A stretch of DNA of 64,000 nucleotides from a virus (IMGVR_UViG_3300031867_003838:44671-108670), one strand, 5' to 3'; shown: positions 29,699 through 62,965, numbered from the stretch's first letter. Made by a program: numbers and translations. Notes: generated by a model from the sequence alone, not told the origin.

Positions 29699-30898
29699 AT
29701 GCCACAAAATATTATTCAAGGTGTAAAAGTAGATGGTACCATCTACAAATATGATTATGAAAGTCTGGAGAACCTTCCAGACCCGGAACTGCCATCAGCT
29801 ACGGCAAGTGATGAAGGGAAAGCACTTGTGATCAACTCTACCGGTGATCCGGCGTGGAAAACACCCGCGTCTGGCCTGCCGTCAGCTACGGCAAGTGATG
29901 AAGGAAAAGCGCTTGTGGTCAATTCCACCGGTGATCCGGCGTGGAAAACACCCGTGTCTGGCCTGCCGTCATCTACAGCGAGCGATTCAGGGAAAGCACT
30001 TATGGTCAATTCCACCGGTGATCCGGCATGGTCAGCAATCCCGTCGGACTTACCTGCCCATGTTTCCAATGACAATGGTAAAGCCCTTGTGCTTAACAGT
30101 ACAGGAAATCCAGCCTGGCGAGATATCCTTCCAAAATATTCACCGCAAGATGCAGGAAAGGTTCTTGTTCTTGGATCATCAGAACCAGGAGGGAGCGGAA
30201 ATGAAGGACCTCAGTGGGGCAGTGCACTTCCGACTGGTTCTTCTATCGGATTTGCACTGGTGATCGACTCGACAAGGAAACCGGCATGGAAAGATCTGAA
30301 ATATCCTGCCTGTGGTTCCCAAGATAGGGGAAAGACACTTGTGGTTAATACGACAGGTGAACCTGTCTGGAGCACTCCAAGTGGAGCACTCCCGACCCTT
30401 GGATCTCATGATGAGGGAAAGGCTCTGGTCGTTAATGATAGTGGCCGTGTAGCATGGGCCGAAGTACTGCCGACATGTGACACCCCCGATAGTGGCAAGG
30501 TACTACGAGTCAATTCAACTGGTAATGCGGCATGGAGTAATATGTCTGATGTATTAGTGTGTGATAGTACCGACGCAGGGAAAGCACTCGTGGTTAACCC
30601 GTCAGGTAAACCGGTGTGGGAAGAACTTCTTCCGACACATGATACCAGTTATGATGGATCTGATGCAGGTAAAGTACTTACGGTGGCTACTAATGGTTCA
30701 CTTACCTGGGAAGAAGGAGGAAGCGGCGGCCTGTCACTCCCGGACCCAAGCGACACTAATGAAGGGGATGTTCTGAAGGCTGATGGGTCTGGTGCTTATT
30801 CTTGGGGAAGTCTTCTTCCAGTTTATGATACGTCTGATGACGCGGGAAAAGTGCTCACGGTTACATCGAGCGGGCTCCGCTGGAACAGTCTGTCGTAA
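29699..30898 (+). CDS. Repeat protein (about 12 copies of a ~29-aa motif ..D.GK.LVVN.TG.P.W...LP)
   Basis: 399 aa. The first three repeats are near-identical at DNA level. Confidence 0.5.
   Translation: MPQNIIQGVKVDGTIYKYDYESLENLPDPELPSATASDEGKALVINSTGDPAWKTPASGLPSATASDEGKALVVNSTGDPAWKTPVSGLPSSTASDSGKALMVNSTGDPAWSAIPSDLPAHVSNDNGKALVLNSTGNPAWRDILPKYSPQDAGKVLVLGSSEPGGSGNEGPQWGSALPTGSSIGFALVIDSTRKPAWKDLKYPACGSQDRGKTLVVNTTGEPVWSTPSGALPTLGSHDEGKALVVNDSGRVAWAEVLPTCDTPDSGKVLRVNSTGNAAWSNMSDVLVCDSTDAGKALVVNPSGKPVWEELLPTHDTSYDGSDAGKVLTVATNGSLTWEEGGSGGLSLPDPSDTNEGDVLKADGSGAYSWGSLLPVYDTSDDAGKVLTVTSSGLRWNSLS
29789..30049 (+). repeat. 3 x 87-bp tandem repeat (about 90 percent identical), each encoding LPSATASDEGKALV.NSTGDPAWKTP.SG
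   Basis: Units start at 29789, 29876 and 29963. Confidence 0.85.
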
Positions 30899-30930: not shown

Positions 30931-32673
30931 ATGACTTTGGAAATTTTAGTGAACCACTATCAGGAAAATGAATCAATCGTAGAACGCTTCTTTTCATCCC
31001 TTGCCATGCAGAGGGGTGTGGAGTTCCGGGTTATGCTTTGCAGTGACGGGGGTGTGAGACTGCCCCCCGATCTTTTTTGTAAGTTCCAATTTGAAATTAC
31101 CTACCAGTACCTTCCCCACACCGGTGTGTGCCATACGAGGAACGTCATGCTGGAAAAGGCGACAGCTGATTATCTGATGTTCTGCGATGTGGATGACTGT
31201 TTTTCTTCCCCGTATGGGCTTAGCAGTCTGATGGCTGCAGCTGAGAAGTCGCGTGCGGACGTAATCGGATCGCCGTATCAGTGCGAAAGGCTCATAAACG
31301 GAAAATATGAGTACGCTACCTATAAGAACGACACGATCCGCGTCCATGGGAAGATCTTCAGGAGAGCGTACCTGACTGAGAACCACATCCGTTTCCCGGA
31401 TGAACTGGAAACGAGCGGCGACATGTCTTTCCTGTGGCTCACCTATGCGTTGACGGACAGAATCGTTTGGGTTCCTGAGAACTTCTACATCTGGAAGTGG
31501 AATCCGGACTCAGTGACCAGGGCTGATCCGTACAGCCATGTGATGAATTATGATCGGACGCTCAGGTGTTATGAGCTTTTGGCGAAGGATCTTGTGAGAA
31601 GGAAGCGGGGGGATCTGTTCCAGAATCTGGTGTCGACAACGATTTCTATGATTTATGTGGATATGACGCATCCGAGATGGAGACAGGCACCAAAGGAGTA
31701 TCAGGAGAGGGCGCGGAAAGCTGTCTGCGGTTATCTGTCCGAGTACTATGAGTTTTATGCGTCCGTAGATGAGAATTACAGGAAAAGCAAGTACCTTCTC
31801 ATGCTGAACTATAAGAATTTCCAGGGATTTTCTGATCCTTTTGAAAAGATTGATGAGTGGGCGCATTCTTTACTTCCTGCAGCCGATCAACCCAAAGGTA
31901 ATGGAGAAGAGAAAAGAGAAGAAGGCAGCGTCCTCATCATCGGCTATGGTGTCGTCGGTTCCAATCTGGCCAAGGAGTTGAGTCCTCTAAACCCCGAAAC
32001 CTATGATAAATACAAGGAAATCGACACACGGACAGCCGACAAATACAAAGTCGCCTTCATCTGTGTGGACACACCGGCGACTGGTGATTCGGACTGTGAC
32101 ACGACTGAAGTAAAGAACGCGATCATGGAGAATGAAGCACTTATATATGTGGTGAAGAGCACAGTTCTCCCCGGCACAACGGAGAGATTGATGCGTGAGA
32201 CAGGAAAGCACATAATCTTCAGTCCGGAGTATTATGGCGGCACGCAGCACTGCAATAACTATAATTTCGATTTTACAATCCTTGGCGGTGAGAAGGATGC
32301 CTGTATCAAAGTCGTTCAAGTATTACAGAAAGTATATGACGCTCGTCATCAATTTAGGATTACTGATTCGAAGACAGCAGAACTTGCGAAATATATGGAG
32401 AATAGCTATCTTGCAATGAAGGTATCATTCTGCAATCAGTTTTACGAAATCGCAAAGAAAGCCGGTGTGTGCTACGAAGAACTCCGTGAGCTGTTCGTTC
32501 TTGACCCACGAGTGGAACCATCACATACATTTGTGTACAGGGATCACCCTTGGTGGAGCAGCCATTGTTTAAATAAAGATGTTCCTGCTATTGCAAATGC
32601 TTATGACGCGAAATTATTACAAGACGTGATTGATTACAACACTGAATGTAAGACGGGCGATAGGGTATTATAA
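30931..32673 (+). CDS. Fusion protein: family-2 glycosyltransferase (N-terminal) + UDP-glucose/GDP-mannose dehydrogenase-like domains (C-terminal, truncated)
   Basis: GT2 signatures: VMLCSDGG and DxD motif FCDVDD. Rossmann motif IIGYGVVGS. UGDH central-domain match ENSYLAMKVSFCNQFYEIAKKAGV...LDPRV...SSHCLNKD. The region is much more GC-rich than the surrounding genes. The UDP-sugar-binding C-terminal domain is absent. Confidence 0.6.
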   Translation: MTLEILVNHYQENESIVERFFSSLAMQRGVEFRVMLCSDGGVRLPPDLFCKFQFEITYQYLPHTGVCHTRNVMLEKATADYLMFCDVDDCFSSPYGLSSLMAAAEKSRADVIGSPYQCERLINGKYEYATYKNDTIRVHGKIFRRAYLTENHIRFPDELETSGDMSFLWLTYALTDRIVWVPENFYIWKWNPDSVTRADPYSHVMNYDRTLRCYELLAKDLVRRKRGDLFQNLVSTTISMIYVDMTHPRWRQAPKEYQERARKAVCGYLSEYYEFYASVDENYRKSKYLLMLNYKNFQGFSDPFEKIDEWAHSLLPAADQPKGNGEEKREEGSVLIIGYGVVGSNLAKELSPLNPETYDKYKEIDTRTADKYKVAFICVDTPATGDSDCDTTEVKNAIMENEALIYVVKSTVLPGTTERLMRETGKHIIFSPEYYGGTQHCNNYNFDFTILGGEKDACIKVVQVLQKVYDARHQFRITDSKTAELAKYMENSYLAMKVSFCNQFYEIAKKAGVCYEELRELFVLDPRVEPSHTFVYRDHPWWSSHCLNKDVPAIANAYDAKLLQDVIDYNTECKTGDRVL

Positions 32674-32793: not shown

Positions 32794-33366
32794 GTGGTCA
32801 GCGCCAAAATTGTAACCGCAAATGGCCTGACTATCGACGCGACAAATGGCATTAGTTTCACACATCCCGCAAGCGGAGTGACGCCTGGGACTTACACACA
32901 AGTAACTACCGATGCGCAGGGTCATGTTACCACTGGTGCAAATCCTAGCACTATTTCAGGCTACGGGATTCTTGATGCATACACTAAGACGGAAGTGGAT
33001 ACCGCCCTTTCTGGCAAAGTAAGCACTGAACAGGGCAAAGGATTATCCGCTAACGACTTTACCAATACATTGAAGACAAAGCTCGAAGGGATTTCGGCAG
33101 GCGCAGAAGTCAACGTTAACGCAGATTGGAATGCTTCATCAGGCGACGCGCAGATTCTAAACAAACCGACAACAGTTGCGGGATATGGTATTACGAACGC
33201 GTACACCAAGACAGAAATTGATTCTGCATTGTCAGGCAAAGTCAATACCGAATCTGGTAAAGGACTTTCATCTAATGACTTCACAACCGCGCTAAAAACA
33301 AAGCTTGAAGATATCGAGCCAATTACCGACGCTGAAATCATTGCCATTTGGAGCGGAAAATCTTAA
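32794..33366 (+). CDS. Fibre-repeat protein (GKGLS.NDFT repeats), probably the C-terminal remnant of a disrupted fibre gene
   Basis: No ATG and no SD; the ORF track starts it at a GTG. The reading frame is open back to the TAA of the upstream gene (32671-32673), and the upstream in-frame sequence is homologous to 26295..27179. C-terminus ITDAEIIAIWSGKS. Confidence 0.4.
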   Translation: MVSAKIVTANGLTIDATNGISFTHPASGVTPGTYTQVTTDAQGHVTTGANPSTISGYGILDAYTKTEVDTALSGKVSTEQGKGLSANDFTNTLKTKLEGISAGAEVNVNADWNASSGDAQILNKPTTVAGYGITNAYTKTEIDSALSGKVNTESGKGLSSNDFTTALKTKLEDIEPITDAEIIAIWSGKS

Positions 33367-33377
33367 AAGGAGGCACT

Positions 33378-35174
33378 ATGAAATACTTAACCTATGATGG
33401 TTTAAGAACATTAACCAATTTAATTAAAGGCGACATAAACGGTATTTCAGGTAATGTCATCCCTACATTCGAAGAAGTATACGACAACCTGATAAACCTT
33501 GACGAAGACACGAGCGGCCATACAGAAGGGAGCTTCCAATCCGCTGAAGGTCTTCACGGCCTTAGATATATCAACGGCGCATTCGAAGTCGCCGTTCCTA
33601 CATATACACCCGTCACTCCTTCGTCTGGCGACAACCCAAGCGAAGAAGGATGGTACGAAGAAACAAGTGGTACGTACTCTCCCACCGATGATACTACACC
33701 GACACAAGACAAAACTTATTACGAGAAAACGGTATCATGGACGGAGGTACAGGAAAAAGCCGTTGGAGAGATTGAAGTGATCCCAGAATTTTCGCAGAAA
33801 ACCTATACAGGTTCTGCACAGACCGTAGTTACTGCTGGTGAAGGAACGGGTGACATGTATTACTATTTGTCCGATTCTTCTACGGCTCCGGCAAGCAACG
33901 CGTATTCAACGTCACTTCCGACTCTGACGAATGCGACAGCCAATACGTATTACTTGTGGTATTACTCAGGAAAAACGAGTCAATATAAAGCAACAACGCC
34001 TACGTATGTCGTATGGCCTGGCGCTGCGGATCACATGCTGATGCAGAAAGCAACACCGACTATTACAAAGTCAACTAGTTCTGTATCATTAGACAGTTCA
34101 AATATGACACAAGATGTAACTATTACTGTTGTAACTGACGGAAGTCTAACTGTGTCTTCTTCAGATGTTACAATTGCAACTGTTTCCAATCTTTCTGGTA
34201 GCACCTATCGAATTTCTGCGGTTGGGGGTGGTAGTTGTACAATTAATATCAGTGCTACGAATGGGGTAAACTTTAATTTTTTGAGCGACTCTATTTCAGT
34301 TACTTGTACACTTATAAAATCGTTAAATGATTCTACTTGGTCTGAGATTTCTCAAGCTTCATCATCTGGTGTAGCCAATTCATATTGGAATGTAGGTGAC
34401 TGTAAGGAGATCACATTAAATGGTACGGTCGGTACTTTGGCACTTAGTAACAAGAAACTGTGCGTGTACATTCTTGGGTTTGATCACAACTCAGCGATTG
34501 AAGGTAGTGGTATTACTTTCGGCGGATTCAAGACGGCTGTTACGGGTGGAAAAGATGTGTGTTTGATTGATGGTAATTATAATTCATACACTACTAACGG
34601 TAGCAAATGGTTTAATATGAACCACTGGGGTAATTATAACTATGGTGGCTGGGCTGCAAGTGATGTGCGTTACGACGTTCTTGGAAGCACAAACAGTGCA
34701 CCATCTTCATATGGTAGTGCGAGAACAACATCCTCAACTGGTAATAATCCAACTAACACATGTGCTACAAGCCCAGTCAGTAACACACTGATGGCCGCAC
34801 TTCCAGAAGATTTAAGGGCTGTGATGAAACCAATCACAAAGTATACAGATAACAAAGGTAATAGTTCAACTGCTGCTGCAAATGTAACTACAACCATTGA
34901 TTACTTGCCGTTAATGTCTGAGTACGAAGTATTTGGTTCTACTTCTTACGCTAATACTAATGAGGCAACTAATCAGGCAAGGTATGCTTACTACGCCAAC
35001 AACAACAGCCGTGTGAAGTATGGGCATAGTTCAACTGGGTCTACCGCCCATTGGTGGCTTCGTTCTCCTGGCCGTTCGTACGCGAACCGCTTCGTGCGTG
35101 TTCACACTGACGGCAGTGTCTCCAACAGCCCCTCTAGGCTTTCGCGTGGCCTGGCGCCGCTCATTTTGATCTGA
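33378..35174 (+). CDS. DGR target protein 1: BIG2-like Ig domains + C-terminal lectin-like variable domain (WWLRSP...GLAPLILI)
   Basis: RBS AAAGGAGGCACT ATG. Paralog of 35536..37356. The C-terminal ~40 codons form variable repeat VR1. Confidence 0.65.
   Translation: MKYLTYDGLRTLTNLIKGDINGISGNVIPTFEEVYDNLINLDEDTSGHTEGSFQSAEGLHGLRYINGAFEVAVPTYTPVTPSSGDNPSEEGWYEETSGTYSPTDDTTPTQDKTYYEKTVSWTEVQEKAVGEIEVIPEFSQKTYTGSAQTVVTAGEGTGDMYYYLSDSSTAPASNAYSTSLPTLTNATANTYYLWYYSGKTSQYKATTPTYVVWPGAADHMLMQKATPTITKSTSSVSLDSSNMTQDVTITVVTDGSLTVSSSDVTIATVSNLSGSTYRISAVGGGSCTINISATNGVNFNFLSDSISVTCTLIKSLNDSTWSEISQASSSGVANSYWNVGDCKEITLNGTVGTLALSNKKLCVYILGFDHNSAIEGSGITFGGFKTAVTGGKDVCLIDGNYNSYTTNGSKWFNMNHWGNYNYGGWAASDVRYDVLGSTNSAPSSYGSARTTSSTGNNPTNTCATSPVSNTLMAALPEDLRAVMKPITKYTDNKGNSSTAAANVTTTIDYLPLMSEYEVFGSTSYANTNEATNQARYAYYANNNSRVKYGHSSTGSTAHWWLRSPGRSYANRFVRVHTDGSVSNSPSRLSRGLAPLILI
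35042..35166 (+). repeat. DGR variable repeat VR1
   Basis: 125 nt aligning with the template repeat at 37983..38107. 21 of 24 differences fall on template adenines. Confidence 0.6.
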
Positions 35175-35535
35175 TTTTTTTCATCGAGAAAAAAGAATAA
35201 AACACTCAAAGGCGTATGCGCACGAAAGTGTGCATCGCCTTAAATGAGAACCAAAAAAACATTAAGTTAATGTTCTTAACGTGACGCCGCGAAGCGGCTG
35301 AAAATTATTAGTTTATACAACAACTACAAAACCCTTTTGTGGAAACAACAACAAAATTCCAACGGTGGTCAATAAAACGACAATTTTATGGGTGTTTTGA
35401 CCACAATATGTTGTGGTTTTTGAAATTTCAAAAACTATATATAGTGGGTGTCGATACCTATAGAACTACTAATTGTGGTATGACACTAATTTTGTAACTG
35501 TAAACCGCATTTCCTCGTAAGGATAAGGAGGAACT

Positions 35536-37356
35536 ATGAAATATTTAGATTATAACGGCTTGACAGTTCTGTCAAATGCGATCAAAGGTGATTTGTCTAG
35601 TTTTACAGATACCGTGATCCCGACATTTGAAGAAGTGTATAGCAATTTGTTTACAATCGACCAGGATATTGAGGAACACAAGGAAGGTGAAGTCACTGAT
35701 CCTGACGGGATTCATGGCATTCGCTACGCAGATGGCGCTTTTCAGGTGGCGAATCCGACTTACGCAGAGGCTTCGCCCGCATCAGGAAGCAACCCGAAAG
35801 AATTAGGATTGTATGAATTGGTTAATGGCAACTATGTTCTAACTGATGATGAGGAAATTGTTTCTGGCAAAACTTATTACACAAGAAATGATTCATGGGA
35901 TGATGTAATCACGAAACCTGCTGGAAGTGTTACGACAACACCTTCATTCTCTCAGAAGACTTATAACGGATCTGCACAGACTATTGCTACTGCTGGCGAG
36001 GGAACTGGCACGATGTATTATTGTCTGTCAAACTCTTCTACTGCTCCGGCGCGTTCAAGCTATAGCACGACGTTGCCGACATTGACTGACGCGACAGATG
36101 CCACATATTATCTGTGGTATTATGCTGGCGCGTCTTCAAGCTATAAGGCTACTACGCCTGACTATGTAACATGGATCGGATCTGCAAATAACATGCTTAT
36201 GCAGAAAGCCGAACCGACTATCACAAAATCGAAATCATCTGTTTCACTCAGCACTGCGCAAATGTCCGATGATGTGACAATCACTGTGGTGACAGATGGC
36301 ACATATACGGTTACTTCGTCAGATACATCTGTTGCGACTGTGACAAACACATCTGGCAATACCTATCATATTGCTGTTGTGGCAAATGGTACGTGTACGA
36401 TCAATATTGATGTGGCAGAAGGATCGAACTATGCAGCAGCGTCAGACACTATTTCAGTTAGTTGTGCGTTGGTGAATAATACACTTGATAACAATGACTG
36501 GTCTACTATATCCGCGATTTCTGCGGCAGGTACTGGTAGTACATATTGGTCTGTTGGTGACTGCAAAGCGATTACACTCAATGGTACTGTTGGCACACTG
36601 AGTTTAAGTAATGTAACAACTTATGTTTATATTCTTGGATTCAATCACAACTCAAGTGTAGAAGGAACTGGCATTACGTTTGGTGGATTTAAAACTGCGG
36701 CATCTGGCGGTACAGATGTATGCTTGGTTGATAGTAAATATAATTCAAATGCTGGAAATAGTGGTGGCAAATATTTCCAGATGAACCATTGGGGATCATC
36801 GTCAAACCCGTACAATACTAACTATGGTGGCTGGGCGGCTTGCGATATGAGATATGACATCCTTGGTAGTACCGATTCACAACCGACTCCATATGGTAGC
36901 ACAAAGACTACATCCGCTACTGGTGTAAATGCAAGTAGTACATGCGCAACTAATCCAGTAGCAAATACCTTAATGGCAGCGCTTCCATCAGATCTTCGTG
37001 CGGTGATGAAACCGATTACTAAGTATACGGATAATAAGGGTAATTCAAGTACAGCGGCCGCTAACGTGACGGCTACTATTGATTATCTTCCGCTTCCGGC
37101 AGAAAAGGAAATATTTGGGTCAATTAGTAATGCAAATACAAATGAGGGTACAAACCAGGCACAGTATGCTTACTATGCTAACAACAATAGCAAGGTGAAG
37201 TATCGGCATGACGGCACGTCAACAGCCGCCCGTTGGTGGCTTCGTTCTCCTTACCGTTCGTACGCGTCCCACTTCGTGTCTGTTTACACTAGCGGCATTG
37301 TCAACTTCAACGGCTCGGGCAATTCGTTTGGCCTGGCGCCGCTCATTTTGATCTGA
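35536..37356 (+). CDS. DGR target protein 2 (paralog of target 1)
   Basis: RBS TAAGGAGGAACT ATG. Same domain order as target 1. The C-terminus carries VR2. Confidence 0.7.
   Translation: MKYLDYNGLTVLSNAIKGDLSSFTDTVIPTFEEVYSNLFTIDQDIEEHKEGEVTDPDGIHGIRYADGAFQVANPTYAEASPASGSNPKELGLYELVNGNYVLTDDEEIVSGKTYYTRNDSWDDVITKPAGSVTTTPSFSQKTYNGSAQTIATAGEGTGTMYYCLSNSSTAPARSSYSTTLPTLTDATDATYYLWYYAGASSSYKATTPDYVTWIGSANNMLMQKAEPTITKSKSSVSLSTAQMSDDVTITVVTDGTYTVTSSDTSVATVTNTSGNTYHIAVVANGTCTINIDVAEGSNYAAASDTISVSCALVNNTLDNNDWSTISAISAAGTGSTYWSVGDCKAITLNGTVGTLSLSNVTTYVYILGFNHNSSVEGTGITFGGFKTAASGGTDVCLVDSKYNSNAGNSGGKYFQMNHWGSSSNPYNTNYGGWAACDMRYDILGSTDSQPTPYGSTKTTSATGVNASSTCATNPVANTLMAALPSDLRAVMKPITKYTDNKGNSSTAAANVTATIDYLPLPAEKEIFGSISNANTNEGTNQAQYAYYANNNSKVKYRHDGTSTAARWWLRSPYRSYASHFVSVYTSGIVNFNGSGNSFGLAPLILI
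37226..37348 (+). repeat. DGR variable repeat VR2
   Basis: Aligns with the template repeat. 19 of 20 differences are at template adenines (AAC to TAC/TCC/CAC/TTC/GGC and similar). A GC-rich hairpin lies about 35 nt downstream (37386-37420). Confidence 0.75.
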
Positions 37357-37453
37357 TTTTTTCATCGAGAAAGAAACAAGACACTCATTGGGCGTGGGCA
37401 CGCGGAAGTGTGCCTCGCCCTTCACAATACTGAAGAAAGGAGAAATTCTCGTT

Positions 37454-37951
37454 ATGTCTGTATTAAAGAGTAAACGAAAAGAAAGTAAAGTTGAATTTCT
37501 GCGTGTAGCAAACGAAATCTATGAAGATACTCTGTGGTTTTTAAGCAGACTATCTGATCGTTATCAACGGTTCTTATGTGAGCATGTAATGAAACTTGGA
37601 TGTGAAGTAATCAGTGAAACTGTAAAAGCGAATCATATTATAATTCAGAGTAAGGCATCGTATGAAGCAAGAAAGATCCACTTATCAGAAGCACTATCTT
37701 CGCTCAATGCATTAGATGTTCAGTTAGGACATATATGGGCACTATTAATGAGGAATCCAGAAGGGTGTTTCAGAAACTCCGCAGGAGAATCGAAACCGCC
37801 CTCGGAGGCAATCAGCAAACTCAACTCTATGGCTGAAAATCTTGGAAACAAAATCGAGTACGAAGAAAACATGATCAAAAAGATTATGAAAAGCGACAAA
37901 GAAAAGTATAACAAGATAAAAGCTGAAGAGAAAGAGACAATCAAAAACTAA
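37454..37951 (+). CDS. Accessory variability determinant (Avd)-like small basic helical protein
   Basis: Lies between VR2 and the template repeat. RBS AAAGGAG before the internal ATG at 37454 (the ORF track starts at 37388). 165 aa, predicted helical, K/R-rich. Confidence 0.45.
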   Translation: MSVLKSKRKESKVEFLRVANEIYEDTLWFLSRLSDRYQRFLCEHVMKLGCEVISETVKANHIIIQSKASYEARKIHLSEALSSLNALDVQLGHIWALLMRNPEGCFRNSAGESKPPSEAISKLNSMAENLGNKIEYEENMIKKIMKSDKEKYNKIKAEEKETIKN

Positions 37952-37982
37952 AACAGGAGGAATAAAGGGTGCATTTCTGTAT

Positions 37983-38107
37983 TACCGCCAATTGGTGGCT
38001 TCGTTCTCCTAACCGTTCGAACGCGAACAACTTCGTGAATGTTAACACTAGCGGCAGTGTCAACAACAACAACTCGAACAATTCGAATGGCCTGGCGCCG
38101 ATCATTT
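37983..38107 (+). other. DGR template repeat (TR)
   Basis: Non-coding copy of the target 3' ends. It reads through in the VR reading frame and is adenine- and AAC-rich (aac cgt tcg aac gcg aac aac ... gtc aac aac aac aac tcg aac aat tcg aat). It has no start codon and no downstream hairpin. Confidence 0.75.
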
Positions 38108-38162
38108 ATAAACGTGTCGCAATTTCATAAGACATATAAATGAGGAGAAATGTTTCCCGTGG

Positions 38163-39467
38163 TTGCAATGCCACAAAAGTGCTAATGTACGTCAGGCACG
38201 GACGCTTCTTGCATGGTGGAGAATGGGTACTACCTCCATTTCATGTGCTGTGACTACGCATCGTGAAGGTATCCCCTACAACAGCGATGTGGCGTTAGCG
38301 AATAATTTAAAAATGACCAGTATTGAACGACATGAAAGGCGTTATCAACGACGTAAACAGAAAAGAGAAGAACGTCGCGAAGAACGCTTAAGTAAAATTA
38401 AATCAGTGGATGAGATCTTCGCATTTAACAAGATGTTTAAATACGGCGAACAGTGCTGTAGAGGTGTAATGTGGAAACATTCTGCGCAGATGTTTAAACT
38501 GCATCTGTTCTCGCGCACTGCTTCCAACATCAAGAGAGCGAAGAATGATTACAAACCAAAGCCGCTTTCAAAGTTTACGATCAGTGAACGCGGTAAAACA
38601 AGACAGATTGAGGCGCCGCATATTGATGACAGACAAATCCAGAAAGCGCTTGTGCATGAAGTGCTTTTGCCTGTGTATCTGCCACATATGATCTATAACA
38701 ATGGCGCGTCACTAAAGGGTAAAGGCTTACACTTTTCACAGGCACAACTTGACAAGATGCTTCACAGGCATATCAATCGGTATGGTATGAATGGGTGGAT
38801 CATCACGGCTGATATGAAGGGTTTCTTTCCGAATGCGGATCGCAACGTCGTAAAAGAGAATCACAAGATGATCAAGAATGAGCAAGTGCGCAATATCCTC
38901 GACACGATTACAGACATCGGAAGCGGCGACAGAGGACTACCACTTGGCGTTGAGCCGTCACAGGTTGAAATGATCGCACTTCCCTCTCCGCTCGACAACT
39001 TTATGTGTTGCCAGATGGGATTAAAGGGCTTCGGTCATTACATGGACGATTATCATATCATCGTGCCGCCCGACAGAGATCCGAAAGAGATTCTCGAAGT
39101 GTTTATTGAAAAGGCAGCAAGCATCGGAATTACCGTGAGTCGTGATAAAACAAGAATTATTCCATTCGGTAAGCCTTTTAAGTTCTGTAAGATGAAGAGA
39201 ATATTTGACAAGGACAGGATCATTCATCGCGGATGCAGAGATAGCGTAAAACGGCTCCGCACTAAGATTAAGAAGTTTTCAAAAACGGAAATGAACATGG
39301 AGGATATTGCAACCTCGATTGGTAGCTCATTATCTTACTTCGGGATAACGGATGATCATTACACGGTGTTGAAACTCAAGCGGCTATTTTATAAAGAATT
39401 TGGTTTTACATGTGAGGAATTACAAAGGAGAAATAAAGATGGAGTATATTTGCCACAGGCCGTATAG
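38163..39467 (+). CDS. DGR reverse transcriptase
   Basis: RT motifs in order: RQIEAPHIDDRQIQKAL, ITADMKGFF, LPLGVEPSQ (the DGR-type GxxxSQ signature) and GHYMDDYHII (YxDD). Start uncertain: the track uses TTG at 38163; ATGs at 38223 and 38313 are alternatives. Confidence 0.8.
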   Translation: MQCHKSANVRQARTLLAWWRMGTTSISCAVTTHREGIPYNSDVALANNLKMTSIERHERRYQRRKQKREERREERLSKIKSVDEIFAFNKMFKYGEQCCRGVMWKHSAQMFKLHLFSRTASNIKRAKNDYKPKPLSKFTISERGKTRQIEAPHIDDRQIQKALVHEVLLPVYLPHMIYNNGASLKGKGLHFSQAQLDKMLHRHINRYGMNGWIITADMKGFFPNADRNVVKENHKMIKNEQVRNILDTITDIGSGDRGLPLGVEPSQVEMIALPSPLDNFMCCQMGLKGFGHYMDDYHIIVPPDRDPKEILEVFIEKAASIGITVSRDKTRIIPFGKPFKFCKMKRIFDKDRIIHRGCRDSVKRLRTKIKKFSKTEMNMEDIATSIGSSLSYFGITDDHYTVLKLKRLFYKEFGFTCEELQRRNKDGVYLPQAV

Positions 39468-39837
39468 AGGAGTTTGTGCGGCAGGTAAGAAGCACTTTTT
39501 TAAAAAAGGATCAAAATTAGAATGCGTTAACGGATGGCTCATTAAAGGAGTAGAATGCATTTGCCACATGAATAGCGAGCTCGCGCATCTGTACTTTGCA
39601 CGCAATGATGATGGGCAAGGATTTCATAGAGGTGAGCTGACGCACAAAATCGCGTATGCTGACCGTCATCCTAACGAAGATAACGGATTCAGATTTACAC
39701 CTGAAGAGTGCGAAATGATTGAAACAGAATACGGTAAGTGGGTGAAACAGGAAGCGGAGACGCTTCTTTTTAATAACGATTTTTTCAATGCTGAGATCGG
39801 CGAACTGGAAGAATTAGCAAATAAATTGGAGGCGTAA
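39438..39837 (+). CDS. Cys-rich small protein (putative Zn-binding)
   Basis: RBS AAAGGAGAAATAAAG ATG. Motifs CHRPYRGVCAAGKKH and CVNGWLIKGVECICH. Overlaps the 3' end of the RT gene by 30 nt. Confidence 0.45.
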
Positions 39838-44296: not shown

Positions 44297-45478
44297 ATGA
44301 CTGATTTGAATGAACTTCTGAAGTATGGTATACTATCAGAAGAGGAAATCCACAAACAATTAAAAATGAAGAAAACTGAATCAATGCTTAAGGAGCATCC
44401 TCATCCGATCACGCAGCTCTCGAACGGTCGATGGCAGACTTACTACGACGATCCTGTAACTGGCAAGAAGATTGAAGTTAAACTTGCTACCAGGGATAAG
44501 GTTATAGACCGGCTGTACGACTTGTATTACAAGAAGAGTTACACGTTTGAACAACTCTTCCCAGAATGGCTTGAGTACAAGAGAAGCATCACGGCAAGTC
44601 CTAACACGATCACGAGGCATCAGCAGCATTACAACAAGTATCTCTCTGGCAGATCGGTCGTTACGAAAGATATCCGTCACATCAAGAAGACGGAGCTCAA
44701 CTCATTCTGCAACTCACTGGTCAAGGATTTCGCCCTATCCTCCAAGGAGTGGATGAACGTCAAGACGGTGATTAACGGAGTGTTCGACTATGCTGTCGAC
44801 AAAGAGATTCTGGGATTCAATCCGATGTCTCATGTGAAGATCACGGTCAAGTACCGGCAGGTCAACCGCAAGCCGTCTTCGACACAGTGCTTCAACACGA
44901 ACGAACTGGCGGATTTTAAGTCGTACATGTACGGGAAATATGCGGAGACGAAGGATTCCAGTTTCGCATCTTCCATCGTGCAGATGCTGACTGGACTCAG
45001 GATCGGGGAGCTTGCCGTGATTAAGTGGGCAGATGTGGACTACGAAGCGCATCAGCTTCATGTGGTAAGAGAAGAAACAAAGGTATTTGATACTGGCGAA
45101 TTCGAAGTCGTACCGCACACGAAGGGCAATCGTGACCGCTTCGTCGTACTTGTTCCGGAGGTAGAATCTCTGCTGAAAGAAGTGTACGCAAATGAAAAAC
45201 GTCACGGGGAATATGTCTTCACCCGTGACGGTGAGCGCCTTACCGCTAGGCAGCTCGCATATGTGTATAAAAAATATGCACGTAATACAAAGTCCGACTT
45301 CAAGAGTTCACACAAGGCTAGGAAGACCTACGCCAGTATGCTCCAGAAAGCCGGTGTTCCCATCGAAGTGATCCGTGAAATGCTCGGTCACAAGGATCTG
45401 GCGACTACTTTCGCGTATCTGTTCAGCACAGAAACGCCGGAAGAAACCTACGACAGCGTCGTGACGGCCATGTCTTAA
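44297..45478 (+). CDS. int: Tyrosine site-specific integrase
   Basis: C-terminal catalytic region HKARKTYASMLQKAGVPIEVIREMLGHKDLATTFAYL (R...HxxR...Y pattern). RBS GGAGGAATAT ATG. Confidence 0.75.
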   Translation: MTDLNELLKYGILSEEEIHKQLKMKKTESMLKEHPHPITQLSNGRWQTYYDDPVTGKKIEVKLATRDKVIDRLYDLYYKKSYTFEQLFPEWLEYKRSITASPNTITRHQQHYNKYLSGRSVVTKDIRHIKKTELNSFCNSLVKDFALSSKEWMNVKTVINGVFDYAVDKEILGFNPMSHVKITVKYRQVNRKPSSTQCFNTNELADFKSYMYGKYAETKDSSFASSIVQMLTGLRIGELAVIKWADVDYEAHQLHVVREETKVFDTGEFEVVPHTKGNRDRFVVLVPEVESLLKEVYANEKRHGEYVFTRDGERLTARQLAYVYKKYARNTKSDFKSSHKARKTYASMLQKAGVPIEVIREMLGHKDLATTFAYLFSTETPEETYDSVVTAMS

Positions 45479-49210: not shown

Positions 49211-49641
49211 TTGAATAACTCCCCTATTGCTCTTGGCTCATATTTTTGATGGCCTATTCTCATTAAGAACCCTTTCGATTTTGCGTCGAATTCTTGACTC
49301 TTATTTATCATGTTTTTGAGATAATATATCTCGTCTTTGATCTTTCTACGCTTCACCAGTCTCTCACGAAGCATCACATATGCGTTATATCCACGGTATG
49401 CATCCAATTTCGACATTTCAATATAATGGTTGATATCAGTTATTTCCAAATCGACTTTACTTAATTCTTCATAAGAAGAAGCAAGTTTTGATTTCATATC
49501 CCCATAAATTGAATTGATACGATCTGAAAATTCTGCGACGGAACTACAGTAATTATCGGTCTCAATTATCTCTCTTGTATTTGTAATCCCTTTGTACCTT
49601 TTATTCCTATTCATCTTTGATCGCTGTCGTTTTTCACCCAT
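49207..49641 (-). CDS. Hypothetical protein
   Basis: 144 aa ORF. Confidence 0.4.
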   Translation of the reverse strand: MGEKRQRSKMNRNKRYKGITNTREIIETDNYCSSVAEFSDRINSIYGDMKSKLASSYEELSKVDLEITDINHYIEMSKLDAYRGYNAYVMLRERLVKRRKIKDEIYYLKNMINKSQEFDAKSKGFLMRIGHQKYEPRAIGELFK

Positions 49642-50794
49642 GATATTTCAGCAAGTATTCGTTCGACACGGCCTTGAAAGAATCACTGCCATCCTTCGCC
49701 CGGAACACAACGCCTTCTCTCATGCCACCGTCTATCTGCGATGATTCTGATCCCGCATACTCAAGGATTTCATCGATTGTATCAGGAAGCATGTAGTTCG
49801 AATCGACAATCGGCACGCACGGGATTCCGCATCTGTCTCGCAGAATCTCTTCCATCTCTTCAGTTCCGTATCTGCCATTCTCAGAAGTGATAAGATTGAA
49901 CGCAGCGAAGTCAATATCTTTCATGCCGTAATCGCGCTTCTGGATTTTGTGCCCGTAAATCTCGCCCTGAATTGTGATCCAATCTACGTCTAGTAAGTCC
50001 ATCAGAACAGACAGAACAGCTCTCATGTTATAGATCTTTTCAATTTCCCAGTACACGTTGGTGTCGTACCAGTTGTCTTGATCAGGAGTTTCCTGGACTA
50101 CATTGCGACTGCAGACATAGAATTCATCTTTGCCGAAAAGACCGCGACCGCGTTTGAGTGCATACGAGGCACTGCAGCCGTCCAGCTTCTCACTGGCGAC
50201 CCAAGGACCTTTATTATCAAGGATCCATGGGATGTTCTGGCACCTTGGTTCGTCTGTCTTAATTACCCATTCAGGCCACCCGCGCCTCTTGTCACTCTTT
50301 CTGCCGAAGAGCGCAAACATGACCTTCTTACTCCACGGCCTTTTCATCATCCATCTAGCCCAACGATGTTTGAAAAGTTTCGGATTTCTACGAGCCATCT
50401 GCTTATATTTATCAGCGCTCGGGCGCTTTCTGTAGTTGTCTTCCGGTGTGCTGTATCTAATATGAAGTTTCTCTGTAAGCCCGTCGCCTTCTCGTACTGA
50501 ATTTGCAGGGATATTTAAGTCGTCAAGCGACATGAGCAGCCCCTGAGACAGGACGGTTCCTTTGAAATATTTCTGAGTCTTAATCTTGTAGTGATTCTTC
50601 TCAAGGAACGTAAACGGCTCTTCATGCGGACACTCGGAATCGATCTCAATGTATACGGCCAGATCTCCGACCTTGAACTGCCCCTTACGAACCATCACTT
50701 TCCATCCTAATACTGTCGCCAGTTCAACTCTATCAGCACCAGGAATCGGCTGAATATCTACTATCTTCTCTACGTGTGCTAACTCACGTTCCAC
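49634..50794 (-). CDS. ATP-dependent RNA/DNA ligase-family nucleotidyltransferase
   Basis: Motif I KxDG (SEKLDGCSAS). Overall layout is ligase-like. Confidence 0.5.
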   Translation of the reverse strand: MERELAHVEKIVDIQPIPGADRVELATVLGWKVMVRKGQFKVGDLAVYIEIDSECPHEEPFTFLEKNHYKIKTQKYFKGTVLSQGLLMSLDDLNIPANSVREGDGLTEKLHIRYSTPEDNYRKRPSADKYKQMARRNPKLFKHRWARWMMKRPWSKKVMFALFGRKSDKRRGWPEWVIKTDEPRCQNIPWILDNKGPWVASEKLDGCSASYALKRGRGLFGKDEFYVCSRNVVQETPDQDNWYDTNVYWEIEKIYNMRAVLSVLMDLLDVDWITIQGEIYGHKIQKRDYGMKDIDFAAFNLITSENGRYGTEEMEEILRDRCGIPCVPIVDSNYMLPDTIDEILEYAGSESSQIDGGMREGVVFRAKDGSDSFKAVSNEYLLKYHG

Positions 50795-52129: not shown

Positions 52130-52324
52130 TTATATTGCGGATAACTGGGTCGTCCGGGGTAGACGTGTTATCCGCGTAATCCCCTTGCGGTTCAGGCTGT
52201 TCCGAGTGCCGCCAATTATATGCCCAGTGTGCTATTTTTTAAGGTGGTTTCGGTTCCACCACTTCAGGCAAAGATTGATCGCGCAAAGCGTGAAATCTTT
52301 TCGTGTTGCTGACGAAAAGATTAA

Positions 52325-52396
52325 CTGGGGATCTGCGAATCGAACGCAGGATGTAGCAGTCAAAGTGCTATGCCTTAACCACTTGGCGAATCCCCA
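52325..52396 (-). tRNA. tRNA-Gln (anticodon UUG)
   Basis: Full 72-nt cloverleaf on the minus strand: TGGGGAT T C GCC-AAGTGGTTAA-GGC A TAGCA-CTTTGAC-TGCTA CATC CTGCG-TTCGATT-CGCAG ATCCCCA G. Confidence 0.8.
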
Positions 52397-52788
52397 AAGA
52401 AAGGAGCTGACCCTAACATCTCTCACGCCTAGGTCAGCACGGTTAATACCAGGCGATGTGTTATTCCCGTGCCAAAAATAAAGGATTATGAAACAGAGTG
52501 TGCTATTACGCCAAAGCATCCACGCCGACATATCTTGGGGAATATATAGGTATATTACATGTCGGTACTATCCTATATACCATGGTCGTGCCAAACCACA
52601 CACCCAAGTTGTGAGATCCATACCGTTAAGCGATGCCTTTCGCATAGGTACGTACAATGTACTTATCGGTCATGCCTGTAAATCATGTCCTGTCATCCCA
52701 CACACGGAATTCGCATGAAACGATTCCGTCCATCGCGATGCACTCTTTAGATGATGGCTGCTTCTAAGCCTACATCCTCTATTTCAAA

Positions 52789-52861
52789 CCGGAACGGCAG
52801 GAATCGAACCTGCATTCAAGCCATCAGCAATGTACCTGTTCTGCCATTAAACTACGTTCCG
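52789..52861 (-). tRNA. Degenerate tRNA-like element (tRNA pseudogene?)
   Basis: Perfect 7-bp acceptor (CGGAACG/CGTTCCG), U8A9, D-arm GTTT-AATGGCA-GAAC, T-arm GCAGG-TTCGATT-CCTGC and canonical spacing (73 nt). No anticodon stem can be formed. Confidence 0.25.
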
Positions 52862-53525
52862 AAATGCCTGTCTTTCCAGGCTGCCAGACCCTTTGCCTAC
52901 CTAGACATTTCACGGATTCGAACCGCACCTCGTCTTTACCAAAACTCGGTCAGCGAGCAGAATCGAACTGCATTTATTATGCGGGTGAAGATTTGCACCT
53001 CACATGAAGATGATTTTTTTCAATGCAGGGTTATCGCAATGGTCGTGTTAGCTCTTAATCTTAACGAGCTGTTCCTACTCGCAAGTCATCTTCTCCCTGT
53101 TGACCCCGTCTACCTATTCCGCCACCGCATAACATTTATTTTCAAACGCTACCTGTTCAAAATTGCTATCATAGCAGCTCCATATAAGCCTCGGCGTAAA
53201 CCAACATCCAACCGCACAGAATTGCACAGGAGATTTTCGTATTATTTACTACCTATTGTGTATTGTATACTGCTTATATAAAATTTACTGCTTATTGCTT
53301 ACACTACCTACTGAATACTAGCTACTGTCTACTACTTAAATCATCGACGCTGACAATTTTTAAATGTATTATAGGCACATTTAATATTTTGTCTGCATAA
53401 CTTTTATTTGTATATATTTCCTTGTTAGAGCAGATTTTTTATAGTTTTACATCTCTCAACCTGCAAAACTAGAGATGGGATGTTGAAGTGAGACTTTCGC
53501 TATGATAGCAATAATGTTATTAGTT

Positions 53526-55211: not shown

Positions 55212-55629
55212 CGTATACTGGCTCGCTATTTGGAATATATCTTCCGAATTTGATAATAATATTGTTAAATTTGCGAAGAATCATCACCTTATCATCTATC
55301 TCGTCTGGGTAATATCCGGAGTAAATAACAATTGGATCCTGACAATCGTATTGATTTCGCAAAACAGAAACAAAACGCTTCAGCTCGTCAAACGAATCCA
55401 ATGGTTCAAGCCCCTGACATACAACAGCCTCTGTAATTGGATTGTTGATATAGCGTTTACAGAGCTTGTTAATGTCGACAGTGATCGGTTTCTCATCTTT
55501 CAACGATTGATTCTGGCAGAGATCTTTGCCACATTTAAAAGAGCAAGTTGGAAACATTAATGTCATTGACGGGACCCTGTAGTTAACAAAGTCCTCGTCG
55601 ATGATACCTTTAAGAGTAATTGTATTCAT
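55138..55629 (-). CDS. Second NrdG-like protein with non-canonical Cys spacing
   Basis: CSFKCGKDLC (C-x3-C-x4-C). CQGLEPLD...IVIYSGYYPDEID parallels NrdG GGDPL...WVWTGY. Overlaps nrdG by 74 nt. Confidence 0.45.
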   Translation of the reverse strand: MNTITLKGIIDEDFVNYRVPSMTLMFPTCSFKCGKDLCQNQSLKDEKPITVDINKLCKRYINNPITEAVVCQGLEPLDSFDELKRFVSVLRNQYDCQDPIVIYSGYYPDEIDDKVMILRKFNNIIIKFGRYIPNSEPVYDEILGVELASNNQFTRRYYANAEV

Positions 55630-58600
55630 GAGAATATATCCTCTGATGTCAAATTAATTGGTTCCCATTTCCTCAGTTTGTATTCTTTTGACCGTTCCTT
55701 TGACCATGTTTTAACTGGTGTATAGAAGCCGACGATCCTCGTGTACTCAGTCGCTACTGGCTCTCCGCATACCGGGCAGATTTTACCATAGAAGGCATGA
55801 TTGTGTTTACACGCTTGAATCTTAGTATTGAAGGCGAAGTATGTAACTCCACTATCAGCAATATAGTTCACCATCTTCCACGCTTTATCAAAACTATCAA
55901 ATGGCGAGTCTATGTTTGCATGAAGAATTGAACCGCCATTACAGTATCCGTCAAACTCTGCTGCAATCCTGACTCTTTCCTGCAACGTGGTCTTAATTCC
56001 AAGAGGGATGAACTGATTGCCATACAGTGGCAGGTCATAAATCCTTGCTCTTGGATAGAAGAATTTATCCTTCTGCATCAGTTTCGCCGCAGCACTTTCG
56101 CCAGGAATTTGTTCAGTGTTAATTTGGTAATCACATCCGTAGCTCTCGATGAATTCGTCCGCGACTCTTCTCATTGTCTGGAATATCTTCTGCCCGAATA
56201 TAGATGCTTTCTCGGTATAGTAAGTGTTACCAAATTCATCTACTTTGATATATTTGAATTTCTTCATTGTCTCGTATATGCCGAGGAACCCTATAGTATT
56301 GTAGAGGAACTCGAAACCTATAAGACCGTATGTGAAGTTTGGTAGAATACCCTTATCAACATTACGCTTAATAATATGCCGGACTGCATCGAGAGCGCAC
56401 AAGCAGACATATGTGCGATCTTCCAACTCTTTCAGATACTCTTCTTCAGTCTTTGTGTCGAGTGCTATTCTTGCCAAATTAATGGTATTAACTTTTACAG
56501 ATCCTACTTTCAGAGCCGTCCCGCCAATGCTGTTGAAATACCCAAGTTCTCGTATATCAGACTTTAATCTGCAATTGTGTGTCATTATTCCATTTGGTAA
56601 CGTAAAATACGGATCTGTTTCATCACTCATTTCAAAACAATATACATAGTCGTCATCACTCTCATATTCTTCTATGTTTTTAATCTTAAAAAATATTGAA
56701 TTATTACGCTTTATATATATACCACTTTGATTTCGTCTGTTACACCTCTCATACCATCTTATACAATATACAGGGTAATTCCTATTAAATGCTTCGCCCC
56801 TGATAATAACTTCACCATCACCTGTTCTGTCAGACACATCAATGATACTCTGAAGCCCAAGTGTTGTTATAAGAGCTTCCATATCATAGATAAGACCAGG
56901 CGATGTCGAGTAAATTCGATTGCTATTTCCGCCGTCGGTTAAATAATAACCATCTAAAACTCCCTGTCGAAACTCATATGACTGGAGAAGACAATCGAGG
57001 TTTAATCTTTTCTCAAATGAATATCTACCAGAGACAAATTTTCTAATAAATAAACCGACTTTGTTGCTACAAATTAACAGAGGATATACATTATTGAATG
57101 GCGTATTCAATGAAAACGCTTTTGATTCGCCGATGTCTTTAAGTGCAACTTTTAAAATATGTTTTGATACGTTATATTTTTCTTCGTTAAGAGATAAAGA
57201 TACTACAATCGAATTACTGGTATCAGTATTATCGTTATACATAGAGCCATCTCCAAGGTACATACCAACTAAATATCCCTGTTCGTATGTAAGCGACTCA
57301 TCTACCTCTCTGACAGAATATAATGGAACATTGTTGAACATTAAATAATCATCTGTTGTTAATTGATCAGTAGCTACTTCACCTCTATGAGTTAAATTAA
57401 TGTGATTGTCAGTGACAAGTATCTCTTTATTATTTACAGTAGTAACTTTATATAGCTTTCGTTTTGGAAGTCTAATAATCTTCCCCTTCGTCCATCCGCC
57501 ATTATTAAACACTGTAAAATTACGCTTAGTTTCGTTATATGGCGCTTCATACAATTCTTTGAACGTCATAAAATTCACGCCGTCTGAAGACTTAGTAAGC
57601 GTCATTTGTGAACCATCGAAACAACAATTACTTAAGCTATTAACGCTTGAATCGACAAATAGATTCGAGTCAGACCATTTCATATTATGTTTGATCGCCC
57701 ACTTTGCAAATTCTTCATCGACAAATTTGCCATCCTGTCGTAGTAAAGAAATGGTACTGACCGGGAAAGTGAACATATTGTCACTTCTAATTTCAGACAT
57801 GACTTCCATATACCACTTCTGAAACTCAATTATCTCATCTTCATAGTCAATCATGAACGTCCCATCTGGGAACATCGCTCCTCCAAAGAGCGCTTCGAAA
57901 TAAGGTCTGTCAAACACTGAACTGTTAGTGAAGGCAGATTGACTTCCATCGCGGACGTAGGGCTGGTTAACTGCAAAAATAAAACGCTGAAAATTCTGGC
58001 GAGCGTAATACTTTTCATTGCCACTACTTCTTACGCCCATATAGTCTGCATCAACATCTTTCTTCCAGAAATAAAACATGTACGGTATTATATTAGGTAA
58101 GCCAACTGCACCACTTGTTCGATTACACGCAAAGCTGACAAACTCCTTAACAAAATCTACGAATGTGGTCAAGTGTTTTGCAGGTAAAGCGTTCTGCCCA
58201 TCTATAAAATAAAGCCCCTTCTCAGCCAGATCCTTCAGATCATATGCAAAACAGTATGACCTAAACGTACTTGAAGGAGCGTCATGCAAATAAAGATCCC
58301 CTATCCACTCCATTCTCAACCAGGCATTTGCTGTTTTAAAACCAAACTTCTTCGAAATTTCATAATAGATTTTATTGAATGCAAGCAGCTTAGAGTGCGG
58401 TTTAGGCATTTCACGCTCAAGGGTCACAATATCTTTATGACTTACATTAGAATTGCCATCAATACTTGAATCTGCCACCACCTGTTCGTCAACAAAATTG
58501 TCAATAAAATCAGTATAACTTAATTGATTGTCATCAAAACCGTTCAGTCTAGCTATATCTGTTCCGAATTCTGTTTGAAGTTTATTGTATTGAGAAACGA

Positions 58601-58655
58601 AGTTCTTAACTAGCTTAATGTTTATCTCCATCCTTATAACCTCTGGTTTACCCAA
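55626..58655 (-). CDS. nrdD: Anaerobic ribonucleoside-triphosphate reductase NrdD (class III RNR), interrupted by an intein
   Basis: Extein junction SLSNC|CRLKSD (conserved NrdD CCRL). C-terminal Zn-ribbon CPVCGEP and glycyl-radical region TRIVGFYTP. Confidence 0.75.
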   Translation of the reverse strand: MGKPEVIRMEINIKLVKNFVSQYNKLQTEFGTDIARLNGFDDNQLSYTDFIDNFVDEQVVADSSIDGNSNVSHKDIVTLEREMPKPHSKLLAFNKIYYEISKKFGFKTANAWLRMEWIGDLYLHDAPSSTFRSYCFAYDLKDLAEKGLYFIDGQNALPAKHLTTFVDFVKEFVSFACNRTSGAVGLPNIIPYMFYFWKKDVDADYMGVRSSGNEKYYARQNFQRFIFAVNQPYVRDGSQSAFTNSSVFDRPYFEALFGGAMFPDGTFMIDYEDEIIEFQKWYMEVMSEIRSDNMFTFPVSTISLLRQDGKFVDEEFAKWAIKHNMKWSDSNLFVDSSVNSLSNCCFDGSQMTLTKSSDGVNFMTFKELYEAPYNETKRNFTVFNNGGWTKGKIIRLPKRKLYKVTTVNNKEILVTDNHINLTHRGEVATDQLTTDDYLMFNNVPLYSVREVDESLTYEQGYLVGMYLGDGSMYNDNTDTSNSIVVSLSLNEEKYNVSKHILKVALKDIGESKAFSLNTPFNNVYPLLICSNKVGLFIRKFVSGRYSFEKRLNLDCLLQSYEFRQGVLDGYYLTDGGNSNRIYSTSPGLIYDMEALITTLGLQSIIDVSDRTGDGEVIIRGEAFNRNYPVYCIRWYERCNRRNQSGIYIKRNNSIFFKIKNIEEYESDDDYVYCFEMSDETDPYFTLPNGIMTHNCRLKSDIRELGYFNSIGGTALKVGSVKVNTINLARIALDTKTEEEYLKELEDRTYVCLCALDAVRHIIKRNVDKGILPNFTYGLIGFEFLYNTIGFLGIYETMKKFKYIKVDEFGNTYYTEKASIFGQKIFQTMRRVADEFIESYGCDYQINTEQIPGESAAAKLMQKDKFFYPRARIYDLPLYGNQFIPLGIKTTLQERVRIAAEFDGYCNGGSILHANIDSPFDSFDKAWKMVNYIADSGVTYFAFNTKIQACKHNHAFYGKICPVCGEPVATEYTRIVGFYTPVKTWSKERSKEYKLRKWEPINLTSEDIFS
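56574..57623 (-). mobile_element. Intein (350 aa) with LAGLIDADG homing-endonuclease domain inside nrdD
   Basis: Begins CFDGSQMTL and ends GIMTHN followed by a Cys. Two LAGLIDADG-like motifs: YLVGMYLGDGS and VLDGYYLTDGG. Confidence 0.65.
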
Positions 58656-62786: not shown

Positions 62787-62965
62787 TCCGCAAGTTGCCT
62801 GTGTTCATCAGCGCATTTCTTACATTCGACATATACACCTTCAGCATATTTTCGATCTGGATGAGTTTCCAATTTTGAAACTCGATAGAATTCCTTCGCA
62901 GCATCATCGCTTTCTTTCGCTACTTCCTCACAATGCTTAATTGCAGATTCTAAATCTAACACCAT
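62702..62965 (-). CDS. Hypothetical protein
   Basis: 87 aa ORF. Confidence 0.35.
   Translation of the reverse strand: MVLDLESAIKHCEEVAKESDDAAKEFYRVSKLETHPDRKYAEGVYVECKKCADEHRQLAEWLRELQELRRRKNMSQKFLSQSWTSCQ

Follow-up and report, generated by a model that had tools for sequence, protein, structure and literature searches.

A 64,000-nt stretch of viral DNA (IMGVR_UViG_3300031867_003838:44671-108670), referred to here as the window, contains between positions 33378 and 39467 a cassette with the parts of a diversity-generating retroelement (DGR): two target genes that each end in a variable repeat (VR), a small accessory gene, a template repeat (TR), a structured RNA, and a reverse transcriptase (RT) gene. 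The source assembly is ENA ERZ27256863, and the window lies within a 151.7-kb ENA contig. A preliminary description, made from the sequence alone, had already recognized such an element. Each VR ends in a sequence resembling the initiation of mutagenic homing (IMH) element of other DGRs and is followed by a hairpin. The features are as follows, with positions counted from the first nucleotide of the window.

33378-35174, plus strand: target 1, 598 aa; poorly modeled N-terminal part, Ig-like region, and C-terminal DUF6273 domain with VR1
35044-35166, plus strand: VR1, variable repeat at the 3' end of target 1
35148-35174, plus strand: IMH-like element of VR1, GC-rich GGCCTGGCGCCG followed by VR-specific CTCATTTTGATCTGA
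35211-35239, plus strand: hairpin 1, downstream of VR1; GC-rich, loop GAAA (GGAA in relatives)
35536-37356, plus strand: target 2, 606 aa; Ig-like domain at about residues 225-310 and C-terminal DUF6273 domain with VR2
37226-37348, plus strand: VR2, variable repeat at the 3' end of target 2
37330-37356, plus strand: IMH-like element of VR2, the same 27-mer as at VR1
37390-37420, plus strand: hairpin 2, downstream of VR2; GC-rich, loop GGAA
37454-37951, plus strand: accessory gene, 165 aa, pI 8.9; Avd-like four-helix bundle with a long C-terminal helix
37985-38107, plus strand: TR, 123 nt, with 33 adenines and 14 AAY codons in a VR-matched reading frame
38112-38319, plus strand: RT-2 RNA (Rfam RF03077), 101.1 bits against a gathering score of 40, covering positions 1-222 of the 222-position model
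38313-39467, plus strand: DGR reverse transcriptase, 384 aa from the ATG at 38313

A repeat search of the window recovered the TR and both VRs as a three-copy direct repeat, starting at 35044, 37226, and 37985, that aligns without gaps and in register over 123 nt. VR1 departs from the resident TR at 24 positions, and 21 of these are TR adenines (hypergeometric p = 2e-12); VR2 differs at 20 positions, 19 of them TR adenines (hypergeometric p = 1.5e-12); this recount reproduced the tallies of the preliminary description. Altogether, 27 of the 33 TR adenines are altered in at least one of the two VRs. A 62-nt TR pattern in which every adenine was masked to N matched only the TR, VR1, and VR2 (0 of 100 shuffles), and further VRs, sought across the window, were not found. 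The preliminary description had treated all of the differences at adenines as mutagenesis, which holds for the pattern overall but not for the A-to-C difference at 38101 (TR index 116), which is the same in all seven VR copies examined and is a fixed difference between VR and TR.

The TR and the VRs share a reading frame, and the TR is AAC-rich, both as had been proposed: its 14 AAY codons hold 28 of the 33 adenines. Because these adenines occupy the first two positions of the AAY codons, adenine mutagenesis cannot yield stop codons, and each target would therefore be able to sample approximately 1e16 peptide variants (15^14, computed) in the last ~40 residues of its DUF6273 domain. The TR had been called non-coding, which is a reasonable reading that needs to be set beside a 53-aa open reading frame (ORF) with a GTG start (37969-38130) spanning it. 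Public gene callers report this ORF, which has a Pfam match to DUF6273 and is almost certainly the TR misread as a gene. A 19-nt segment within target 1 (34009-34027) also resembles the 3' end of the VRs, with TGGCCTGGCGC in common; it lies in another frame, is absent from target 2, and is probably a chance resemblance.

The two targets are paralogs with 63% identity, and both have good ribosome-binding sites, with AAAGGAGG just upstream of the target 1 ATG. Pfam DUF6273 was found at the C terminus of both, in target 1 at residues 480-594 of the 608-aa mechanical ORF (33348-35174; E = 1.6e-9), and target 1 also matched phrog_37900 (E = 6.5e-83). DGRs that target DUF6273 domains have been published (PMC11792537, PMC10743442). 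The structure predicted for target 2 is of high confidence beyond about residue 225, where it consists of one Ig-like domain of the Big_2 type and a large C-terminal domain with the VR on its last strands; of the several Ig-like domains first proposed, this single one is modeled with confidence. The best match in the structure search was the DUF6273 domain of an IgA peptidase. Genes upstream of the targets match tail-fiber and Hoc-like PHROGs, in agreement with the earlier placement of the targets among tail-fiber genes, and the DUF6273 domain is presumed to form the face through which a tail-associated receptor-binding protein contacts its ligand.

The 27-mer at the 3' end of both VRs is identical between them, and there is no other copy in the window. 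The TR has the GC-rich GGCCTGGCGCCG in common with the VRs but carries ATCATTTATAAACG where the VRs carry CTCATTTTGATCTGA, and in both targets the homology with the TR stops a few nucleotides (8) short of the stop codon. A shared GC-rich element followed by sequence that diverges between VR and TR is the arrangement that distinguishes IMH from IMH*, suggesting that the 27-mer may direct homing in the same manner.

Downstream of VR1, hairpin 1 has a folding energy of -20 kcal/mol in its 84-nt context (z = -6.35), with none of 200 shuffles being equally stable; hairpin 2 folds with z = -2.5, and the region folded 3' of the TR contains no comparable hairpin (z = +0.36). The preliminary description was thus right to place a hairpin after each VR and none after the TR, although hairpin 1 lies at 35211-35239 rather than at 35204-35232. 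Hairpin 1 is kept in two related rumen loci described below (L009 and L011), and the stem variants of hairpin 2 in relatives (GGCACGC, GGCACAC, and GGCGCAC against GTGTGCC) retain pairing through G-T wobbles. Experimental work on BPP-1 and other phage DGRs defined the hairpin or cruciform that follows a VR as a 7- to 10-bp GC-rich stem with a 4-nt GRNA loop, at a listed distance of 4 to 34 bp (PMC3240598). Both hairpins fit the stem and loop parts of this rule. As intrinsic terminators they were rejected, since they have no T-tail and a terminator scan was negative.

The accessory gene encodes a small, basic protein between target 2 and the TR, and the predicted structure is a four-helix bundle of the Avd type. 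A profile of the accessory family matched the annotated Avd of Roseburia phage Shimadzu with 91% probability. Sequence membership in Avd/PF05635 was not recovered: neither the protein nor 52 family members matched Pfam, NCBIfam, or PDB sequences (the PDB being queried by single sequence and by profile), and hhalign of the accessory protein against BPP-1 Avd gave a probability of 0.1%. The designation as Avd-like refers to size, charge, fold, and position and not to the sequence family.

The RT contains the RVT_1 domain (E = 2.9e-10) and matches phrog_1423 (E = 4.8e-57). Its best match in the PDB is the DGR RT of Bordetella phage BPP-1 (8ub7_A; E = 3.8e-8). DGR RTs are distinguished by [I/V/L]GxxxSQ in place of QGxxxSP, together with the catalytic YxDD, and roles have been assigned to individual residues (PMC7826257). 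Both motifs named in the preliminary description, LPLGVEPSQ and YMDD, are present; LGVEPSQ aligns with IGSLTSQ of the BPP-1 enzyme, YMDD aligns with YMDD, and the equivalent of Arg74 is conserved. The protein is 42 to 43% identical to RTs of Faecalibacterium phages. The start at TTG 38163 given earlier was replaced: this is the mechanical start of an open frame that takes in ~150 nt of non-coding structured RNA, and the gene most likely begins at ATG 38313, because the PHROG profile begins at residue 50 of the long ORF and the 3' end of the RT-2 RNA abuts the RT start in annotated phages. A 132-aa gene (39439-39837, plus strand; phrog_29409) overlaps the 3' end of the RT gene by 29 nt and is kept in all of the close relatives. 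Genes that overlap the RT end also occur in Pioen and Dulem virus 34, with no clear homology to this gene; a role as a conserved DGR accessory was not supported, as it resembles Pioen orf28 only marginally (E = 0.002) and the Dulem virus gene not at all.

The gap that separates the TR from the RT gene is occupied by RT-2, which begins 5 nt past the TR and ends 7 nt into the RT reading frame. The same RNA was found in the same gap at six other DGR loci, with scores of 100 to 175 bits: four from annotated or named phages (Taranis, Pioen, Dulem virus 34, and Shimadzu; L008 5706-5926, L013 4712-4932, L012 4700-4915, and L014 4700-4923) and two rumen relatives (L009 8576-8783 and L011 8131-8338). 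Where these phages are annotated, the RT start is placed no more than ~10 nt from the 3' end of this RNA. Among the relatives of the window, RT-2 is the most conserved segment of the cassette, at 99.5% identity. The TR-brt gap of BPP-1 instead matches the Phage_DGR family (RF03022; L015 2750-2882), and RT-2 is the positional counterpart of this spacer RNA. Weinberg et al. (PMC5737381), who described the Phage_DGR motif under the name RT-10, raised the speculation that further DGRs are served by further RT motifs. No paper assigning RT-2 to DGRs was found in the searchable literature, and Rfam gives RT-2 no function. Its position suggests that RT-2 may act as the priming spacer RNA.

The phage is present on two independent contigs of 151.7 kb and 155.7 kb. 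Full cassettes were recovered from three bovine rumen metagenomes (L009, on the 155.7-kb contig, L010, and L011), of which L010 does not include VR1. An identical copy of the accessory protein is also encoded on short contigs (L002 to L007) from six further samples. All six of these contigs start within VR2 or at its 3' edge (window 37192-37342), and two of the six terminate within the TR (window 38001-38024); assembly breaks at VR2 and the TR are attributable to a hypervariable site that disrupts the assembly graph. The look-up was anchored on the accessory gene, a design in which breaks at VR1 are undetectable.

In the relatives, the differences between a VR and its cognate TR are again concentrated at adenines: 19 of 19 for VR1 and 14 of 14 for VR2 in L009, 14 of 14 for VR2 in L010, and 16 of 17 for VR1 and 18 of 18 for VR2 in L011. 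Alleles from different samples (three for VR1 and six for VR2) were compared over 30 TR-adenine columns and 80 invariant non-adenine columns. The VR1 alleles are polymorphic at 25 of the 30 adenine columns and at none of the 80 others, and the VR2 alleles are polymorphic at 27 of 30 and 1 of 80. The VRs are the most divergent segments between strains (81 to 84% identity), whereas the remainder of target 2, the flanking intergenic sequence, the accessory gene, and the RT gene are 92 to 99.5% identical, and target 1 outside its VR is 87 to 93% identical. The VRs are thus hypervariable in natural populations, as seen in assembled alleles from six to seven samples.

Polymorphisms of the TR, which has at least three alleles in the population, are copied into the VRs. 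VR2 of L006 carries, exactly, all seven non-adenine variants of the TR of the L004 type, and VR2 of L011 carries a T-to-C change of its own TR. VR2 of L005 carries the variants of its own TR except for one inside the GC-rich IMH-like element, a pattern that appears to fit a 3' boundary of transfer within the GC-rich element, as in BPP-1 (PMC3240598). The window VR2 follows the resident TR, an allele that differs from that of L009 and L011.

We put at roughly 93% the probability that the element is a functional DGR of a large rumen phage, in the order target 1 (VR1), target 2 (VR2), Avd-like accessory gene, TR, RT-2 RNA, and RT. The cassette is complete and very probably active, with the signs of activity coming from relatives in other samples. 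By analogy with BPP-1, the region from the accessory gene through the TR to the RT gene would be transcribed, and the RT and the Avd-like protein would bind the TR joined to the structured RT-2 spacer RNA. The RT would then copy the TR into cDNA with misincorporation only opposite template adenines, and the cDNA would replace a VR, guided by the GC-rich IMH-like element in which the VR ends (3') and by the downstream hairpin with its GRNA loop. The TR would stay unchanged because it lacks the IMH-like element and the hairpin that direct replacement.

The two VRs differ in their relationship to the resident TR. When compared with the L009-type TR (L009 and L011), the window VR1 has 19 of 19 differences at adenines, and the three non-adenine positions at which it mismatches the resident TR are exactly those of that allele. 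In two lineages, VR2 matches the resident TR while VR1 matches another: in the window at TR indices 65, 66, 91, 93, and 94, and in L011 at index 22 (L011 5071 and 8004). In the window, VR2 has therefore been rewritten since the present TR allele appeared and VR1 has not, a hint, short of proof, that the two targets are used unequally. Pushed to its limit, the same observation would leave only VR2, the TR-proximal repeat, live, with VR1 a decaying former target kept by duplication. That every assembly break observed falls at VR2 or the TR agrees with this, although anchoring on the accessory gene would have hidden breaks at VR1. We regard it as unlikely, given that VR1 keeps the identical IMH-like 27-mer and a stable GRNA-loop hairpin, that the reading frame of target 1 is intact, and that the three VR1 alleles differ only at TR-adenine columns (25 of 30), so that VR1 has been rewritten repeatedly within the phage group. 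The two targets may be rewritten at different rates. A more speculative proposal, tentative and somewhat doubtful when its parts are taken jointly, is that a "fast" receptor-binding protein, often rewritten, and a "slow" paralog, seldom rewritten, serve as bet-hedging, that VRs record past TR alleles in a datable manner, and that RT-2 is the spacer RNA that primes cDNA synthesis in a large clade of DGRs in phages of Firmicutes.

Several observations weigh against a functional element. The window VR1 seems to derive from a TR allele other than the resident one, and homing into VR1 may be rare or nil in this lineage; besides its three non-adenine mismatches, there is a single one in VR2 (G to T at TR 38057). 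The hairpins begin 41 to 44 nt past the end of the TR homology, beyond the 4 to 34 bp of PMC3240598. There is no Shine-Dalgarno sequence upstream of ATG 38313. The lectin-like half of the proposed target structure did not emerge from the fold searches: a C-type lectin fold was not recovered, with Mtd and TvpA absent among the top hits, and the lectin-like reading of DUF6273 rests on PMC10743442. Activity in the source sample itself is presumed.

A rival explanation is a fossil DGR, formerly active and no longer homing in this genome, with an inherited VR/TR pattern; the fit of the window VR1 to a TR allele other than the resident one would be expected of such an element, and the source sample was judged from its assembly. 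This explanation is improbable, as the RT gene, the accessory gene, the RT-2 RNA, the IMH-like elements, and the hairpins are all intact and 96 to 99.5% conserved among strains, and VR alleles differ between strains whose flanks are nearly identical. Moreover, the window VR2 tracks the resident TR allele, which is not the allele of L009 and L011, and this places homing after the resident allele arose.

Ordinary paralog divergence or gene conversion of the three repeats beside an unrelated RT (of a group II intron, a retron, or a defense system) has a negligible probability: the best NCBIfam match is indeed a group II intron RT/maturase and PADLOC reports generic RT, retron, and DRT models, yet the former scores 53.6 bits against a cut-off of 300 and the latter are all weak (at best 51 bits, to a generic RT model, so that a retron or defense RT was rejected), the motif of the enzyme reads LGxxxSQ instead of QGxxxSP and its nearest solved relative is the BPP-1 RT, the gene order is that of published DGRs, and neutral processes would not confine differences to TR adenines (p ~1e-12; 0 to 1 of 80 other columns).

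The cassette has counterparts in other phages. The DGR of Faecalibacterium phage FP_Taranis (MG711467; Cornuault et al. 2018, PMC5883640) has the same order of DUF6273 target, accessory gene, TR, RT-2 RNA, and RT gene, located where the tail module ends and ahead of the lysis genes. In the window, the cassette is likewise followed by XkdX-like, endolysin, and CHAP/SH3 genes and an integrase gene. Similarity to Taranis is confined to proteins (42.5% identity for the RT, 44% for the accessory protein, and 39% for the target), with none at the DNA level. In the DGRs of Taranis, Pioen, and Roos, the VR lies at the C terminus of DUF6273 (PMC11792537), as it does here. Taranis differs from the window in having one annotated DGR target at the locus rather than two tandem paralogs, and its 54-kb genome is about one-third the size of the phage described here, which comes from cattle rumen. 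Roseburia phage Shimadzu (LR596903) also has the order tail fiber, "Avd," TR, RT-2 RNA, and RT; its RT is only 29% identical, and one target is annotated.

The likeness to BPP-1 (mtd-avd-TR-brt) extends to the order of parts, the adenine-specific differences between TR and VR, an RT with [I/V/L]GxxxSQ and YMDD, a four-helix-bundle accessory protein, a VR whose 3' end is GC-rich and is followed by a hairpin with a GC stem and a loop of the GAAA type (PMC3240598), and a TR-RT gap that holds a structured RNA. In BPP-1 this spacer RNA is of the Phage_DGR family, and in the window it is RT-2; the accessory proteins have no detectable sequence similarity, with an extra long C-terminal helix in the window protein; BPP-1 has one target, with the Mtd domain, in contrast to two DUF6273 targets; and the hairpins of the window lie further from the VR. 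Two targets occur in ~13% of DGR cassettes, a figure cited in PMC10743442. The nd4 and nd12 "tentaclins" of gut phages, reported in the same paper, combine one TR with two DUF6273 targets, but these differ in architecture and one VR lies near a 5' end, whereas the window targets are full-length tandem paralogs with VRs at their 3' ends.

The element will not surprise specialists and leaves the understanding of how DGRs work unchanged. Its added value is modest and lies in the hint of unequal targeting and in three further respects. The natural series of VR and TR alleles makes TR-to-VR transfer, and a candidate 3' boundary in the GC-rich element, readable from metagenomes. The orphan Rfam motif RT-2 is placed in the TR-RT gap of seven DGR loci, at the position of the BPP-1 priming spacer. 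Finally, errors of annotation are corrected, namely, an RT ORF run over structured RNA, a TR reported as a small DUF6273 "gene," and an Avd-like gene left as hypothetical.

A search of a phage collection for near-identical DNA returned no match, and the adenine-masked TR pattern had no hits in each of the viral, metagenome, and genome contig collections. RT-based locus searches of the viral and genome contig collections gave no confirmed relatives, and hence no host could be assigned. A tyrosine integrase gene (44297-45478, plus strand) is located where gene orientation and GC skew flip; the phage may be either a free large genome or a prophage.

The tail module is headed by a single 3779-aa ORF (318-11657, plus strand) with no Pfam or PHROG match. 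Among the tail-fiber genes is a 580-aa fusion of a family-2 glycosyltransferase with a UDP-glucose/nucleotide-sugar dehydrogenase (30931-32673, plus strand). In L009 and L011, this gene and its neighbors are replaced by three genes (126, 296, and 341 aa), indicating that the tail-fiber module is mosaic. Just upstream of the fusion gene in the window, a 399-aa protein (29699-30898, plus strand) is composed of ~29-aa repeats (GKALVVNSTGDPAWK) with an 87-nt periodicity in the DNA. The minus strand carries an anaerobic ribonucleotide reductase (NrdD) split by an intein (55626-58655), an RNA ligase (49634-50794), an HNH/NUMOD endonuclease (62965-63609), and tRNA-Gln and tRNA-Ser genes (52324-52862), a set resembling a large phage's module for replication and nucleotides.

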